Part shown: piece by piece, positions 30,321 through 57,373 of the stretch | How the letters are laid out: the number at the start of each line of letters is the position of its first letter | Numbering within the stretch: position 1 is the first letter of the stretch | Assembly: GCA_934527315.1 (NCBI GenBank) | Contig: CAKTAK010000004.1 | Span: forward strand, 7,109 to 71,108 | Length of the DNA stretch: 64,000 nucleotides | Direction: 5' to 3' | From: an uncultured Oscillospiraceae bacterium | GTDB taxonomy: Bacteria; Bacillota; Clostridia; Oscillospirales; Oscillospiraceae | Translations under genes and position numbers: made by a program | The notes under the pieces: model-generated | What the model saw: only the letters and a program-made list of their open reading frames with translations | What the model was told of the DNA's origin: nothing | Database searches by the model: none

Positions 30321-30395
30321 TGGAGGCGCCACCCAGATTTGAACTGGGGAATCGCGGATTTGCAGTCCACTGCCTTACCACTTGGCTATGGCGCC
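30321..30395 (-). tRNA. tRNA-Cys (GCA)
   Basis: Reverse complement ggcgccatagccaagtggtaaggcagtggactGCAaatcc...tggcgcctcca. Cloverleaf with anticodon GCA and an encoded CCA. Confidence 0.85.
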
Positions 30396-30457
30396 ATATT
30401 CAGAAAAACAGGAAAGAGGAAATTCCGCCGTCGCGGAATCCTCTCCTGATTATAAGA

Positions 30458-30533
30458 TGGAGCGGGCGACGAGGCTCGAACTCGCTACCTCCACCTTGGC
30501 AAGGTGGCGCTCTACCGGATGAGCTACGCCCGC
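30458..30533 (-). tRNA. tRNA-Gly (GCC)
   Basis: Reverse complement gcgggcgtagctcatccggtagagcgccaccttGCCaaggtgg...cgcccgctcca. Confidence 0.85.
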
Positions 30534-30560
30534 ATATAACCCGAAAGAAATTCTTTCGGG

Positions 30561-30636
<76 letters not shown>

Positions 30637-30665
30637 ACATCACTGCGCTGCACACTTTTGAATTT

Positions 30666-30741
30666 TGGTGGGAACAACAGGGCTCGAACCTGTGACCCCC
30701 TGCTTGTAAGGCAGGTGCTCTCCCAGCTGAGCTATGCTCCC
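30666..30741 (-). tRNA. tRNA-Val (TAC)
   Basis: Reverse complement gggagcatagctcagctgggagagcacctgccttTACaagcagg...gttcccacca. Confidence 0.85.
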
Positions 30742-41004: not shown

Positions 41005-41040
41005 AGAAAAACGCCCGCAGCAAAAACTGCGGGCGTTTGA
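41005..41040 (-). terminator. Intrinsic terminator closing the alpha operon after rplQ
   Basis: On the minus strand, AAACGCCCGCAG-tttttg-CTGCGGGCGTTT followed by TTCTATTT. Confidence 0.7.
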
Positions 41041-43883: not shown

Positions 43884-44018
43884 ACTAATTGATCATTCCT
43901 TTCAATGATTGTTTGTTCGCACCTTTTATTGTGCGCACGGGGCTTCATCCCGCCGGAGGGAGCCTCCGATTGCGGTGCGGCTGTGGTGAATTGTGTTCAG
44001 GACCGTATTGTGGATGGC

Positions 44019-44363: not shown

Positions 44364-44390
44364 GCTTAACCTCCTCGAATGTTGCGTTCA

Positions 44391-45149
44391 TCAAATGTCG
44401 TCTGCCATTGTCAGAATTTCGGGTTCACCGTCTGTGATACAAATGGTGTTCTCATAGTGTGCGCACAGTTGCCCGTCCACAGTGACTACGGTCCAATCGT
44501 TATCCAGAACGCGGATTGCAGCGCCGCCCATATTGACCATGGGTTCCACGGCGATTACCATGCCCTTGACCAAACGGGGACCATGACCTGCGCGGCCATA
44601 GTTGGGAACTTCCGGAGACTCGTGCAGGTCTGCACCCACACCGTGACCGACGTATTCCCGAACGATGCTGTATCCGTGGCGCTCCACGTACTCCTGAATT
44701 GCGGCACCGATATCGCCAATCCGATTGCCGGCTTTGGCCATCTTAATGCCTTCAAAAAAACTTTGCCGGGTGACCCGAATCAGTTCTTTTGCTTCTTCCG
44801 AGACCTCGCCACAAGGGAATGTTCCGGCGCAGTCACCATGGAATCCATGGATTTTTGCACCTACGTCCACACTGACGATATCGCCGTTGTGAATCACTCG
44901 CGGTCCCGGTATACCGTGGATCAGTTCTTCGTTCACAGAAATGCAGGCGCTTGCCGGGAATCCGCCGTAATGGAGGAAAGAGGGGGTTGCACCGGATTTC
45001 GTAATGAACTTATAAACTTCCTGGTCGATTTGTTCTGTGGTAACGCCATCCGCAACTGCCTGCCGGGCAACGGTACGTGCCTGTGCAGTCAGTTTTCCGG
45101 CCTTCCGCATGAACTCGATTTCTCGGGGGGATTTTACAATAATCGGCAT
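44391..45149 (-). CDS. map: Methionine aminopeptidase type I
   Basis: 252 aa. Confidence 0.95.
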   Translation of the reverse strand: MPIIVKSPREIEFMRKAGKLTAQARTVARQAVADGVTTEQIDQEVYKFITKSGATPSFLHYGGFPASACISVNEELIHGIPGPRVIHNGDIVSVDVGAKIHGFHGDCAGTFPCGEVSEEAKELIRVTRQSFFEGIKMAKAGNRIGDIGAAIQEYVERHGYSIVREYVGHGVGADLHESPEVPNYGRAGHGPRLVKGMVIAVEPMVNMGGAAIRVLDNDWTVVTVDGQLCAHYENTICITDGEPEILTMADDI

Positions 45150-45152
45150 GAC

Positions 45153-45785
45153 TTAGATCCCCAGAACTTTGTAAATCTCAGCTGTGGTTGCCTCGATCGT
45201 CGGCTGATTTTCCACCGTTTTCAGTTTTCCGCGCTGTGCGTAGAAATCCTTCAACGGCTCCGTCTCCTTATGATAAGTTACCAAACGAGCCTTCACAGTC
45301 TCCGGAGCGTCGTCCTTCCGAATGGTCAGAGCAGCACCGCAGCTGTCGCAAACGCCTTCCTGTTTGGGGGGATTGGAAACGACGTGGAAAGATGCGCCGC
45401 AATTGGGGCAGGTCCGGCGACCGGACATACGATCCACAATGGTCTGATCTTCCACTTCCAGAGACAGAGCGCAGTCAATGTCAATGCCATTGGCTTCCAG
45501 AGCCTCTGCCTGAGGAATGGTTCTGGGCACGCCGTCCAGAATGAAGCCGTTTTTGCAATCGTCTTCAGCCAGACGCTCACAAATGATGCCGATGATGACT
45601 TCATCGGGCACCAGTGCGCCCTGATCCATATATTCCTTTGCCTTCAAGCCCACGGGCGTGCCGTTTTTAACGGCTGCCCGCAGGATGTTGCCAGTGGAAA
45701 TAGTAGGGATCTGCAGTTTCTTGCACAGGATTTCTGCCTGTGTACCTTTACCGGCGCCCGGGGCGCCCAAAAGCACAAGTTTCAT
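45153..45785 (-). CDS. adk: Adenylate kinase (with zinc-binding lid CPNCG..CDSCG)
   Basis: 210 aa. Confidence 0.95.
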   Translation of the reverse strand: MKLVLLGAPGAGKGTQAEILCKKLQIPTISTGNILRAAVKNGTPVGLKAKEYMDQGALVPDEVIIGIICERLAEDDCKNGFILDGVPRTIPQAEALEANGIDIDCALSLEVEDQTIVDRMSGRRTCPNCGASFHVVSNPPKQEGVCDSCGAALTIRKDDAPETVKARLVTYHKETEPLKDFYAQRGKLKTVENQPTIEATTAEIYKVLGI

Positions 45786-45800
45786 GAGCTTTTCCTCCGA

Positions 45801-47204
45801 TTAATCCAAGAAACCTTTATAGTTCCGCATAATCATCTGAGCTTCCAGTGCACGCACGGTTTCCAGAGCCACACTGACCACGATGATGATGGATGTTCCG
45901 CCCAGATACACGCCGGAGTTGGCAGCACTGGTGGAGCAAATGCTAATGATAATCGGCGTAACAGCGATAATGCTCAAATACAGAGCGCCGAACATGGTGA
46001 CCTTGTTCAGGACCTTGTTCAGATATTCGCTGGTGGGCCGGCCCGGACGAATGCCGGGGATAAAGCCGCCGTTGTTCTTCAGATTGTTTGCAACTTCCAC
46101 CGTGTTGAACTGAATGGTGGAGTAGAAATAAGCAAAGAACACAATCAGCAGAAGGTAAATGATTGCATACAGCCAGCTGGAAGTGTTAAACACCTTCAGG
46201 AAGCCGCCCCAGAAACCGCCGCTCTCGGAAGTTACACCGAAGAGCATGCAGATGGTTGCGGGCAGAGATGCAATCGACTGAGCGAAAATGATAGGCATAA
46301 CGCCGGACATATTCACCTTCATGGGCAGGTTGGTGGACTGGCCGCCGTACATTTTCCGTCCGACCACTCTCTTGGAGTACTGAACGGGAATGCGGCGCTC
46401 TGCATCGTTGACAGCAACGATCAGAACAATCAGAGCCAGGGAACCCAGCAGCACCAGGACCAAAGTCCAAGGAGCCAATGCGCTGTCCATTACATTTTGT
46501 GCCTGCGTTGCAGCACTGTCGCCGTAAGCAGCGTAACGCTGGGTCAGAATATCCAGAGTCAACTCGCCGCTGCGGATCTTGAACCAGTTGGACACGTTGG
46601 TGACCATGGTTGCGACAGCAGTGGGGAAACGGGACACAATGCTTGCGAACAGAATCACGGAAATGCCATTGCCAATGCCGAACTCGGTAATCTGCTCACC
46701 CAGCCACATAACCAGTGCGGAACCGGAAGTGAAGGTGAAGATGATCACGATGGCCGGCCAGATGCCGGTTGCATCGGAAGTCAGCATACCGTTGTTCTTA
46801 ATCAGCATGTAGTAAGCAAAGCCCTGCAGCAGACCGATCAGAACGGTTGCATAACGGGTAATGCTTGCGATTTTCTTTCTGCCTTCCTCGCCGCCTTCTT
46901 TGGAGAGTCTCTCCAGAGCAGGAATTGCGATGGTCAGCAGCTGAATAATAATCGATGCGTTGATGTACGGCTGAATGCTCAGAGCGAAAATCGTTGCCTG
47001 AGACATTGCGCTGCCGGACATGACGTTCCACAGTCCGAGGACCGTGTTTTCCATCTGCTGGAAATACTGGGAAAGCAGCGTGGTGTCCACATAGGGGACA
47101 GGCACTGCGTTACCAATGCGGTACAGAAGGAGAATTACGATCGTAAAAAGCATCTTTTTACGGATCTCTTCCACCTTCCAGGCATTCCGCATAGTCTCAA
47201 GCAC
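45801..47204 (-). CDS. secY: Preprotein translocase subunit SecY
   Basis: 467 aa with 10 transmembrane helices. Confidence 0.95.
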   Translation of the reverse strand: MLETMRNAWKVEEIRKKMLFTIVILLLYRIGNAVPVPYVDTTLLSQYFQQMENTVLGLWNVMSGSAMSQATIFALSIQPYINASIIIQLLTIAIPALERLSKEGGEEGRKKIASITRYATVLIGLLQGFAYYMLIKNNGMLTSDATGIWPAIVIIFTFTSGSALVMWLGEQITEFGIGNGISVILFASIVSRFPTAVATMVTNVSNWFKIRSGELTLDILTQRYAAYGDSAATQAQNVMDSALAPWTLVLVLLGSLALIVLIVAVNDAERRIPVQYSKRVVGRKMYGGQSTNLPMKVNMSGVMPIIFAQSIASLPATICMLFGVTSESGGFWGGFLKVFNTSSWLYAIIYLLLIVFFAYFYSTIQFNTVEVANNLKNNGGFIPGIRPGRPTSEYLNKVLNKVTMFGALYLSIIAVTPIIISICSTSAANSGVYLGGTSIIIVVSVALETVRALEAQMIMRNYKGFLD

Positions 47205-47645
47205 TTAGACCACCTCAGCCTTTCCGCCTGCAGCCTCGATCTTTGCTTTTGCGGATTCGGAGAAGGCGGATGCCTTAACAGTCAGTTTCTTGGTTACTTC
47301 GCCGCAGCCCAGGAACTTCACGCCGTATTCGCACTTGGACAGAATGCCAGCGACCAGCAGAGCCTCTGCGTCAACAACTGCGCCGTCCTCGAACTTGTTC
47401 AGAACGGAGATGTTCACTGCTTCCAGGGGCTTAGCAAAGATGTTGTTGAAGCCTCTCTTGGGGATACGACGTGCCAGGGGCATCTGGCCGCCTTCGAAGC
47501 CGACGCGAACGCCGCCGCCGGAACGTGCCTTCTGACCCTTGTGGCCGCGGCCTGCGGTCTTACCGTTGCCGGTAGCGTGGCCTCTGCCTTTTCTCTTTGC
47601 AATACGAGTGGAGCCTTCCACCGGAGAAAGTTCGTTGATATACAT
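47205..47645 (-). CDS. rplO: 50S ribosomal protein L15
   Basis: 146 aa. Confidence 0.9.
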
Positions 47646-47659
47646 GGTGTTACGCCCTC

Positions 47660-47839
47660 CTTATTCTTCCGTGACCTGCAGGAGATAGCCGATCTTAGCA
47701 ATCTTGCCTCTGGTCTGGGGGTTATCAGGCTGGACGGTCTCGTTGCCGATCTTGTACAGACCCAAGGACTCAGCGGTAGCAATGTGCTTATCCAGTCTTC
47801 CGTTCAGGCTCTTGACGAGCTTAATTCTCAGATTCGCCA
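47660..47839 (-). CDS. rpmD: 50S ribosomal protein L30
   Basis: Hand translation gives [59 protein letters not shown] (59 aa). It is below the ORF-track cutoff. Confidence 0.9.
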
Positions 47840-47852
47840 TGGTAGCCCCTCC

Positions 47853-48446
47853 TTAACCCAGGATTTCTTCAGGAGTCTTACCGCGAACGGCAGCAACCTG
47901 ATTGACGTCACGCAGGCTCTTCAGACCTGCCATGGTAGCGGCAACAACGTTCTGAGGGTTGTTGGTGCGCAGGCACTTGGTACGGATGTCCTTAATGCCG
48001 GCAGCCTCAACCACTGCACGAACAGCGCCGCCGGCGATCACGCCGGTACCGGGAGCAGCGGGCTTCAGCAGCACGCGGCCTGCACCGAACTCGCCGATTA
48101 CTTCGTGAGGAATGGTGGTACCAACCATGGTGATGGTGGTCACATTCTTCTTAGCAGCTTCGATTCCCTTGCGGATAGCTTCGGAAACTTCGCCAGCCTT
48201 ACCCAGGCCGTAACCAACGCGGCCCTTACCGTCGCCCACAACGCACAGTGCGGAGAACTTAGCCACACGGCCGCCCTTAACGGTCTTGGAAACGCGGTTC
48301 AGAGCAACAACGGTTTCAACAAATTCCTGAGCTTCCTCTTCTCTGGGACGACGATCGCGACGATCACGTCTCTCGCCGCGGTCGCGACGATCGGAACGCT
48401 CGGGTCTGTCAGTTTTCACAACATTCTTTTCATTCATATCTGCCAT
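47853..48446 (-). CDS. rpsE: 30S ribosomal protein S5 with an N-terminal Arg/Asp-rich extension of about 35 aa
   Basis: 197 aa. Confidence 0.9.
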
Positions 48447-48465
48447 TGATTAGGTCCTCCTTCCC

Positions 48466-49393: not shown

Positions 49394-49792
49394 TTACCAA
49401 ACGAATGCCAGGACTTCGCCGCCAACGTGTGCCTTGCGAGCAGCCTTGTCGGTCATAACGCCCTTGGAAGTAGAAATGATGGCGATGCCCAGTCCCTTCA
49501 GAACCTGAGGCAGTTCGTCAGCGCCGGCGTAAACACGCAGGCCGGGCTTGGAGACTCTGCGGAGTCCCTGAATGGCTTTTACCTTACCGGGAAGGTATTT
49601 CAGAGTGATGCGGATGATACCCTGAGTGCCGTCGTCGATGATCTGGAAGCTCTTGATATAGCCTTCGTCGAGAAGGATCTGAGCAATCGCGGTCTTCATC
49701 TTGGACGCAGGGACATCCACGGTTTCATGCTTAGCGGTACCTGCGTTGCGGATACGAGTAAGCATGTCTGCGATGGGGTCGGTGATCTGCAT
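49394..49792 (-). CDS. rpsH: 30S ribosomal protein S8
   Basis: 132 aa. Confidence 0.95.
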
Positions 49793-50013
49793 AATGTTTC
49801 CTCCTATTGTAGAGTTACAGTCCGGATTTTCCGGTCCTGTTCAGGCGGCGAGGTTCCACACTAATGCCTGATTAGCTGCGGCCTTTCGCCATCCTTGCGG
49901 GGATTTTCCCCGACTATAAAAACCGCCGTTCAGCGGGTTTTACCAACGTTTTTCGTCCATTTGCGGCTTGAAAAGCGCACAAAAAAACACGCACATCCGT
50001 GATGTGACAAGTT

Positions 50014-50042
50014 ATTATACTTCCATTTTGAGAATTTGTAAA
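50014..50042 (-). promoter_or_regulatory. Internal consensus-like sigma-A promoter inside the spc operon, upstream of rpsH
   Basis: On the minus strand, TTTACA-N17-TATAAT. Confidence 0.5.
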
Positions 50043-50162
50043 GGAATTTCCGGGCTTGAAAGCTGAAAAAAACGCTTTTTTTGAATTTTCAGCATTTTGA
50101 TTAGTTTTTATACCTTTTGTTCCTTTCCGATGCACAAAAACGTCAACTCAAACAAGTGAAAC

Positions 50163-50208
50163 TATAAAAAAGCCGGCACCGTGACAAGTCACGATGCCGA
50201 GCTGTTCG
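50163..50208 (-). terminator. Intrinsic terminator immediately after rpsZ, within the spc operon
   Basis: On the minus strand, CGGCATCGTGAC-tt-GTCACGGTGCCG (12 bp with one G-U pair) followed by GCTTTTTTAT. Confidence 0.65.
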
Positions 50209-50215
50209 TTTGAAA

Positions 50216-50401
50216 TTACCAGGAAGCTTTCTTCACACCGGGAATCTCGCCCTTGTAGGCCAGTTCACGGAAGCAAATACGGCAGATGCCGTAGTTGCGC
50301 AGGTAAGAATGAGGACGGCCGCAGATCTTGCAGCGGGTGTAAGCGCGAGTGGAGTACTTAGGCTCTCTCTGCTGCTTCACTTTCATAGACTTTTTCGCCA
50401 T
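50216..50401 (-). CDS. rpsZ: 30S ribosomal protein S14 type Z (zinc-binding)
   Basis: 61 aa ..[20 protein letters not shown].. Confidence 0.95.
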
Positions 50402-57217: not shown

Positions 57218-57373
57218 ATTCCACGACAGACGATATACGCCGTGCATGGAAAAGTCTCAGCCGCCCGATTCCCCAGCGGTCTCCCGCCAGCGGACATACT
57301 CCACTGAAGTTACCTCACTCTCGTGAGCAATCTCCAGCTTCATCGCATACTGCGCCCTTTCAAGCGCCATATT

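Follow-up and report, generated by a model that had tools for sequence, protein, structure and literature searches.

A conserved leader RNA at the rpsZ–rpsH break of Oscillospiraceae, a candidate S8 autoregulatory operator

Feedback by ribosomal protein S8 on the spc operon is a textbook case. Here, we describe the region between rpsZ (S14) and rpsH (S8) in a 64-kb window, by which we mean the whole stretch of DNA analyzed (64,000 nucleotides (nt) of contig CAKTAK010000004.1, from an uncultured Oscillospiraceae bacterium). All coordinates refer to this window, and the genes of the S10-spc-alpha cluster lie on its minus strand. The two genes are set apart by a long gap, and the gap ends, just upstream of the rpsH ribosome-binding site, in a structured RNA motif of ∼95 nt (49894–49800, minus strand) that is shared with the relatives of this bacterium. 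We put at roughly 0.6 the probability that this leader is an independently evolved S8 autoregulatory operator placed before the rpsH–rplQ unit.

The spc operon is interrupted between rpsZ and rpsH

The last gene before the gap, rpsZ (50216–50401, minus strand), encodes a 61-amino-acid (aa) S14 of the zinc type, as judged from its open reading frame (ORF) and translation and from the Pfam Ribosomal_S14 domain on the identical genes of loci L001–L009. The first gene of the downstream unit, rpsH (49394–49792, minus strand; ORF and translation), encodes S8, the proposed regulator. The separation of S14 and S8 by 423 nt (49793–50215), from which the original prediction started, was borne out. All ten other gaps from rpsQ to rplO measure 12–19 nt, with 16 nt between rplE and rpsZ, and the counterpart in E. 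coli K-12, the rpsN–rpsH gap, measures 33 nt. The G+C content of the gap is 42.8% (38.8% in its 5′ 289 nt and 51.5% in its 3′ 134 nt) when compared to 53.6% for the whole window. The first strong terminator downstream of rpsH is found at 41038–41009, directly after rplQ.

Nine independent assemblies with an identical S8 have a gap of 422–424 nt. Because of this agreement an assembly artefact, which had been put forward as the option that would undo the prediction, is ruled out. Among these assemblies the 3′ 150 nt are identical and the 5′ part is slightly variable. A 73-aa ORF with a GTG start inside the gap (49914–50135) was rejected as coding, since 1-nt indels between strains break its frame, and a repeat or mobile element was rejected as well, the 5′ 289 nt having no second copy in the window.

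A long gap and a conserved block precede rpsH across the family

One genome per species was scanned for relatives, and the best 80 rpsH loci (S8 84–98% identical) were analyzed. Their taxon titles are Oscillospiraceae, Candidatus Limivicinus, Pseudoflavonifractor, Flintibacter and Lawsonibacter; a few loci titled as unrelated taxa are probably mis-binned. Whether the spacer is lineage-wide had been proposed as a check, and the answer is clear: a long rpsZ–rpsH gap (119–1904 nt) was seen in every one of the 71 related species genomes where the two genes could be placed. In 66 metagenome contigs the gap measures 113–648 nt.

Alignment of the 126 nt upstream of the rpsH start revealed one sharply conserved block beside the ribosome-binding site, with variable sequence further upstream. 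The shortest gaps (119–150 nt, and 113 nt in one metagenome contig) hold little beyond this block, and relatives with gaps of 113–200 nt carry the motif only, without terminator or promoter. The 5′ 289 nt of the window gap have no homologue outside the species, except for the promoter region and the 3′ side of an upstream hairpin, P0 (see below), in locus L010.

The gap might hold a free-standing small RNA, or the decaying remnant of an insertion with no role in rpsH expression, as had been considered at the outset. Such a content would agree with the species-specific, A+T-rich character of the 5′ 289 nt, and two hairpins with U tracts within ∼95 nt of the promoter (see below) could release a short transcript. 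The conserved part, however, is the 3′ 130 nt beside the rpsH ribosome-binding site rather than the promoter-proximal part; no relative lacks a gap, the window has no second copy of the 5′ part, and the frame of the 73-aa ORF is broken by 1-nt indels. With this conservation pattern, neither a small RNA nor a remnant is supported, and we consider both very unlikely.

The motif accompanies rpsH even where rpsZ is absent. In loci L024 and L031 the genes before rpsH and its motif are unrelated ones, and the nearest 2.5 kb contain no rpsZ: ORFs of 453 aa and 196 aa precede rpsH in L024 (1–2500), and ORFs of 305 aa and 233 aa do so in L031 (1–2500). The cluster appears to be physically split in both loci; both are metagenome-assembled, so that misassembly is possible. 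The closest sister species, L010 (S8 98% identical), has a 137-aa ORF at 139–551, upstream of the conserved promoter, and no rpsZ within the 972 nt present before the contig end.

When metagenome contigs were scanned with an exact pattern of the motif, 80 loci were returned. In 77 of them rpsH starts 45–67 nt after the pattern (203 nt in one), and of the other three matches two are cut by the contig end and one is a chance match. The distance between the 5′ domain of the motif, termed P1/P2 below, and the ribosome-binding site is not absolutely fixed, because loci L044 (1570–1621) and L166 carry a large insertion in or after the adjacent hairpin P3, which places P1/P2 ∼200 nt before the rpsH start.

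Two metagenome matches with 58–60% S8 identity might have suggested a wider range of the motif and were dismissed; these are assembly chimeras joined in the conserved S8 N-terminus. In metagenome contigs L099 and L131 the leader is shared and the sequences then diverge ∼40–45 nt into rpsH (a distant S8 and unrelated sequence, respectively). A protein search for a wider range returned only relatives at least 89% identical, plus one longer match with 76% identity.

Taken over all loci, the family reads as a graded series at one fixed breakpoint, in which (i) the motif would be an internal operator in a continuous operon; (ii) the gap holds what looks like a promoter of its own, in some cases together with a terminator; and (iii) the two halves of the cluster appear separated.

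The motif is a covarying, structured RNA

The motif was defined from an alignment (A1) of 72 sequences, one per species, and all of its elements lie on the minus strand. Its 5′ domain, P1/P2 (49843–49894), which rests on this alignment and on covariation, is the proposed S8-binding site. Helix P1 pairs GGAUGGCG (49894–49887) with CGCCGCCU (49850–49843). It leads into an internal loop, made of AAA (49886–49884) and AA (49855–49854), around two invariant G-C pairs (49883–49882 with 49853–49852), and then into helix P2, CCGCAG-CUAAU/AUUAG-UGUGG (49881–49871 with 49865–49856), which is capped by an apical loop at 49870–49866. A 2-nt linker joins this domain to hairpin P3 (49817–49840), the base of which (ACNG/CNGU) is conserved and covaries, and the inner part of which is of variable length. 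P3 is followed by a near-invariant linker of the GUAACUCUAAAU type (GUAACUCUACAAU, 49806–49818), which was recognized by column conservation and is unique in the window, and by the Shine-Dalgarno sequence AGGAGG (49800–49805). In the minimum-energy fold the CUCU of the linker pairs with the GGAG of the Shine-Dalgarno sequence, a pairing with a putative role in initiation control.

Covariation supports this structure. In a model of 25 pairs, 88.3% of the alignment cells are paired, when compared to 31–38% if the partners are slid by 1–3 columns, and compensatory changes, with both sides altered, occur at 19 of the 25 pairs. The alignment contains 216 compensatory cells; shuffles gave 64.6 ± 7.7, and none of 500 reached 216. 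The base of P3 (helix 2) is paired in 96.5% of cells, with compensatory changes at three of its four pairs. RNAalifold independently recovered P1, P2 and P3, with compensatory changes at 12 of the 14 pairs that it predicted. The RNA was assigned to the rpsH strand because the frequent G-U pairs fit only that strand.

A covariance model of the motif (R1) found one match in the 64-kb window (49926–49790, 90.1 bits, E 4.6e-27). In all the loci that had been left out of the model (including L010, L020, L024, L031 and L088) it found one match each, directly upstream of rpsH. The proposed check with Rfam and Infernal matched no family: a search of the gap with Rfam 15 yielded nothing at gathering thresholds, and the best matches at E up to 10 scored 11–16 bits against thresholds of 38–100. 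The Phe leader, RNAI and rdlD matches, which fall in this range of 11–16 bits, were discarded as far below their thresholds.

Two other readings of the conserved block were tried and rejected. A mini-ORF, AUGGCGAAAGGCCGCAGCUAA, lies inside P1/P2, and its AUG is present in only about half of the species. As for a general translation enhancer, the combination GUAACUCU-N6-GGAGG is found in the window only at rpsH.

The block thus consists of a conserved, covarying and structured RNA directly upstream of a ribosomal protein gene, which is the general mark of a leader of this class, and the motif very probably functions in cis as the leader of rpsH. A sensor of the riboswitch kind, which would respond to a small molecule, an ion or a non-ribosomal protein and tune ribosomal protein output, would likewise show up as a 5′ leader that is conserved, covaries, keeps unpaired nucleotides invariant and matches no Rfam family. 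We regard such a sensor as highly improbable: the motif is a single bulged stem with a small hairpin, without a multi-helix junction or a pocket-like conserved core, no alternative terminator or anti-terminator follows it, and it is found only before rpsH.

The invariant core resembles the S8 site of 16S rRNA helix 21

P1, P2 and P3 covary, and the only nucleotides invariant in 71/71 sequences are, by alignment column, A65, A67, G68 and G69 on the 5′ side and A114, C115, C116 and U117 on the 3′ side. This invariant AxAGG plus ACCU corresponds to the internal loop and its two G-C pairs. Known S8 sites are stems with two bulge loops, the bases of which form two stacked triples (PMC13232506). The shape of such a site is found in the motif, namely a helix with an asymmetric internal loop and bulges on opposite strands, with two base pairs between them.

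The core was compared with helix 21 of 16S ribosomal RNA (rRNA; 588–604 with 634–651), as given by the bacterial small subunit (SSU) consensus and by E. coli. On the 5′ side helix 21 reads cAaGuc in the consensus and UAAGUC in E. coli, and on the 3′ side gaaACu and GAUACU, respectively. The corresponding strings of the motif are AAGGCC and GGAACCU in its main form, and AGGUCG and CGAUACCU in the form of Flintibacter and Pseudoflavonifractor. Strand orientation is the same in motif and rRNA.

Position by position (rRNA numbering), the residue equivalent to A595, an A in the consensus and in E. coli, is an invariant A in the motif. The G597–C643 pair, in upper case in the consensus, is G-C in 71/71 sequences (columns 69–115), and A642 is A in 71/71 (column 114, window position 49854). 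The C599–G639 pair is C-G in 69 sequences (columns 71–111). Residue 641, a in the consensus and U in E. coli, is A in 63 sequences, U in 6 and G in 2. The two remaining pairs are Watson-Crick in both RNAs and differ in identity: 596–644 is A-U in the consensus and in E. coli, and an invariant G-C in the motif; 598–640 is U-A in rRNA, and C-G in 65 sequences, U-A in 6 and A-U in 1 (columns 70–112). Both pairs are therefore swapped compensatorily relative to rRNA. The six species with U-A and U641 form the Flintibacter/Pseudoflavonifractor group, in which AGGUCG...CGAUACCU reproduces the GUC and the GAUAC of E. coli rRNA exactly. Two extra A residues lie 5′ of the A595 equivalent, and the flanking helices are unrelated to those of rRNA.

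Some of these differences fall at positions that vary among S8 complexes. G597 makes a second contact in some of them, residue 641 is variable, and the 595–(596–644) triple differs between species, E. coli having A-(A-U) and Thermus G-(C-G) (PMC4176348). The sequence of the motif would be compatible with such a triple, A67 and G68–C116 being invariant and two extra A residues being present. The protein side was compared as well: S8 of the window is 53% identical to E. coli S8, and the RNA-contact segments GLRxY and STSKGVMTD are conserved. S8 also has a second, non-specific RNA-binding surface (PMC4176348).

At the sequence level, every feature of an S8 site that could be compared appears to be present in the motif. 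The motif is also weakly similar to GAAAUCCCC...GGGAAC, which forms the upper internal loop of helix 21 in E. coli; this likeness was dismissed, since the bacterial consensus lacks that sequence.

A terminator-like hairpin and a promoter-like site precede the motif in part of the family

The terminator described originally, a 12-base-pair (bp) hairpin with a T6 tract after rpsZ, is present on the minus strand at 50163–50200. The stem (50200–50173), with 7 G-C pairs and a loop of 4 nt, begins 15 nt past the rpsZ stop codon and is followed by C-T6-ATA, so that intrinsic termination is its predicted function. It ranks top among the terminator-like sites in 11 kb (−23.1 kcal/mol, z −3.6) and is kept in nine strain-level assemblies. 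Clear terminators close to rpsZ are rarer among the relatives, being seen in the window, in L034 and in a few others.

The second element that had been predicted, the sigma-70-type promoter TTTACA-17-TATAAT (50014–50042, minus strand), is found within an A+T-rich stretch. It matches at 11 of 12 positions and is the best sigma-70-like site in 11 kb. Its −10 element lies 221 nt before the rpsH start codon, and transcription would start at about position 50007. In the sister species L010 both the −35 and the −10 hexamers are kept and the 17-nt spacer has diverged. Among the relatives, 14 of 43 gaps of at least 280 nt, and none of 27 shorter gaps, have promoter-like sites on the sense strand that match at 10 or more of the 12 positions; the −10 elements of these sites lie 160–347 nt before the rpsH start codon. 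No antisense site of this quality was found in these gaps, and shuffles give 1.0 ± 1.0. Loci L024 and L031 carry a TTGCAA-17-TATAAT or TATACT site 210–245 nt upstream of the rpsH start codon.

The L010 hexamers, the sense-strand enrichment, the sites in L024 and L031 and the terminator after rplQ all support the proposal that rpsH to rplQ form an independently promoted unit. Terminator and promoter lie outside the family-wide core and, by this comparison, seem to be additions in only part of the family; yet they do not look like noise.

The predicted leader folds far better than its shuffles, as the suggested RNAfold analysis revealed (218 nt, −79.8 kcal/mol, z −4.6). At the predicted 5′ end of the transcript a 6-bp hairpin, CACATC-ACG-GATGTG, is followed by a U7 tract (49982–50006, minus strand). 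Its sequence is not conserved in L010, and it is a candidate 5′ stabilizer or weak terminator. Further downstream, and still upstream of the motif, lies the terminator-like hairpin P0, UAAAAC-CCGCU-GAAC-GGCGG-UUUUUA (49915–49942, minus strand), with an A tract and a U tract. The 3′ side of P0 is kept in L010, and the Flintibacter/Pseudoflavonifractor group has a similar hairpin, GGUCAA-CCGCC...GGCGG-UUUUGA. The 10-mer TTTTTATAGT ends both U-tract hairpins of the gap (50171–50162 and 49922–49913, minus strand), which may reflect a local duplication or a shared signal.

A P0 hairpin with a 7-nt loop, YYGAUCN (for example GGGAG-CCGAUCC-CUCCC), was found 20–60 nt upstream of the motif in 23 of the 80 loci by regular expression and RNAfold. 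Its carriers include L019, L024, L031–L036, L039, L048, L066 and L070, and the window has CCGCU-GAAC-GGCGG plus U5 at that place. P0 may be a second recognition element.

The two leader hairpins that had been named from the window alone are both present. One, CGGGG-AAAAU-CCCCG (49898–49913, minus strand), is species-specific and lies in the variable part of alignment A1. The other, CCGG-aaaat-CCGG, sits inside 49840–49817; 12 nt separate its end from the Shine-Dalgarno sequence, whereas the two had been described as directly adjoining. On the evidence of the alignment these hairpins are the variable ones, and the conserved parts appear to be P1/P2 with its internal loop, P3 and GUAACUCUAAAU.

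The combination of elements might be read differently, as a composite control region that splits the cluster into two separately regulated halves across the whole gut family, with the invariant loop, GUAACUCUAAAU and the recurrent P0 (YYGAUCN loop, ∼30% of the species) read by at least two factors or by a ligand other than a ribosomal protein. We consider this improbable. If true, the composite leader would be a new class of ribosome-synthesis sensor and not one more rRNA mimic.

A model for S8 feedback on the rpsH–rplQ unit

In the model that we favor, autoregulation of the rpsH–rplQ unit by S8, upstream transcripts would end at the hairpin and U tract (50200–50163), so that the S10-spc-alpha cluster would be cut in two between rpsZ and rpsH. 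The strong promoter (50042–50014) would start a new mRNA of ∼9 kb, running from rpsH to rplQ, and its ∼215-nt leader would end in the family-wide motif, with P1/P2, P3, GUAACUCUAAAU and the ribosome-binding site in this order. S8 in excess over free 16S rRNA would bind the P1/P2 loop, as a mimic of its rRNA site, and repress initiation of rpsH translation. Translational coupling and mRNA decay would then lower the expression of the tightly packed downstream genes (12–19 nt gaps). In those relatives whose gap is short, the transcript would be continuous and the motif an operator inside it.

Hairpin P3 would place both the invariant GUAACUCUAAAU and the ensuing Shine-Dalgarno sequence back beside the base of P1, and S8 bound at P1/P2 could act by steric exclusion, by trapping of the 30S subunit or by stabilizing the masking of the Shine-Dalgarno sequence. 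Attenuation by S8 is unlikely. The U-tract hairpins precede the motif and no terminator follows it, and for this reason S8 bound at the motif could not control them.

The earlier suggestion of a site for ribosomal protein feedback is supported by a motif that is backed by covariation and has an invariant core matching the S8 site of 16S rRNA, and S8 is the probable ligand of the leader. The sequences themselves show the gap, the motif with its structure, its linkage to rpsH and its resemblance to the S8 site; that S8 is the ligand, that repression is the outcome and that the terminator and the promoter are used is what we infer.

Several observations weigh against this assignment. The likeness to helix 21 spans ∼12 nt and was recognized after the fact, and the references for helix 21 were the SSU consensus and E. 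coli 16S rRNA rather than the 16S rRNA of the host itself. Model R1 gave nothing significant on E. coli 16S rRNA; its best match in the helix 21 region scored 3.2 bits (E 2.5) and was in the wrong register. The motif has three A residues on its 5′ side versus one bulged A in rRNA, and its 596–644 pair is G-C, not A-U. The proposed site ends ∼40 nt upstream of the Shine-Dalgarno sequence, and the model does not account for the two U-tract hairpins between the promoter of the window and the motif.

A short likeness that R1 does not extend to rRNA would also suit an autoregulatory leader with another ligand from the downstream unit (L6, L18, S5, L30, L15, or S8 with a partner), which would mimic a different rRNA site; a position before a multi-gene ribosomal protein unit and an invariant loop are in keeping with any ribosomal protein that binds RNA. 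It is rpsH, however, that directly follows the motif, and S8 is a primary rRNA binder and a proven repressor in E. coli. The loop matches the S8 core position by position, the lineage variant restores the GAUAC and GUC of the E. coli type, we saw no likeness to a different site in rRNA, and the gap has no match to the rRNA models of Rfam. We consider another downstream ligand rather unlikely.

The conserved stem might instead serve mRNA processing or stability, for instance as a site for RNase III or RNase Y or as a 5′ stabilizer; the stoichiometry of one half of the cluster could in this way be uncoupled from that of the other with no feedback by a ribosomal protein. The motif offers an irregular helix of ∼20 bp between two gene blocks, it lies within a continuous transcript in species with short gaps, and spc regulation in E. 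coli is described, in a paper citing the original work (Mattheakis and Nomura, 1988), as including mRNA processing. A nuclease site, in contrast, will rarely require loop nucleotides that are invariant and at the same time match the core of a known protein-binding site, and the fixed distance of 45–67 nt to the rpsH start, together with the invariant linker to the Shine-Dalgarno sequence, points to translational control. We judge a processing element to be unlikely.

Relation to known S8 sites and ribosomal protein leaders

S8 is the known repressor of the E. coli spc operon, where its operator overlaps rplE and is confined to Gammaproteobacteria (PMC3616713). Like the motif described here, that operator is an mRNA mimic of 16S helix 21, a stem with two bulge loops inside the S8-encoding operon; it has an equivalent of the invariant A642 and a G-C pair equivalent to 597–643, and it also carries extra bulges relative to rRNA. 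The two differ in position: the start codon that the E. coli operator overlaps is that of rplE, the second gene upstream of rpsH, and the Oscillospiraceae motif lies 45–67 nt before rpsH itself. They also differ in polarity: GAAAC is on the 5′ strand in the E. coli operator and on the 3′ strand in the motif, as in rRNA. There is no sequence homology and no cross-match with Rfam or R1 between them, and, unlike in E. coli, the operon is physically interrupted here and in the window species appears to have its own promoter. The motif therefore seems to be analogous to the E. coli spc operator family rather than a homologous member of it. The likeness of AUGGCGAAA to the E. coli rplE start was set aside as coincidental, the core there being on the opposite strand.

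The ribosomal protein leaders of Firmicutes and Clostridia in Rfam (S10-Clostridia RF03136, S4-Clostridia, L10, L13, L19, L20 and L21; Yao, 2007; Eckert and Weinberg, 2020) are structured, covarying 5′ leaders of narrow range, like the motif, but no member of this set stands before rpsH or has S8 as its assigned protein. Yeast RPS22B (uS8) carries a 5′-UTR (5′ untranslated region) intron that is autoregulated by the S8 homologue through a conserved two-bulge stem, the sequence of which matters (PMC13232506); in this eukaryote the structure affects splicing, and no report describes a similarity that could be aligned. Three surveys of ribosomal protein leaders (PMC1913097, PMC7247131 and PMC11109978) list no S8 or rpsH leader; text searches for one returned nothing beyond the known gammaproteobacterial operator, and Rfam 15 has no S8 leader of another lineage either.

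The best reading of these comparisons is that an rRNA-mimic S8 leader, tied to a lineage-wide split of the spc operon, has evolved independently. If this is correct, the motif would be a second, independently evolved S8 operator, located at a different gene and with an rRNA-like strand orientation. The Oscillospiraceae are an abundant, mostly uncultured family of human and animal gut bacteria, and the otherwise rigid S10-spc-alpha cluster is broken at one fixed point across the whole family. The natural variants would inform S8 recognition, with G-C at 596–644 and C-G or U-A at 598–640, and a new Rfam family could readily be built on the motif RNA. The prediction is directly testable in cultured carriers, since Flintibacter, Pseudoflavonifractor and Lawsonibacter are among them.

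Other features of the window

Upstream of the S10 part of the cluster, at 57270–57351 (minus strand), the window has an S10-Clostridia leader (RF03136, 42.3 bits; threshold 35.1). Because this leader is also present, the cluster carries at least two. The only other long gap in the rpsH–rplQ unit is that between rpmJ and rpsM (43884–44018, minus strand; 135 nt), which could hold an internal promoter or a leader; no Rfam family matches there at gathering thresholds. On the plus strand, a 1356-aa open frame (44379–48449), antisense to secY through rpsE, is not a gene but a shadow ORF of these highly expressed genes on the minus strand. A cluster of four tRNA genes is found at 30324–30741 (minus strand).

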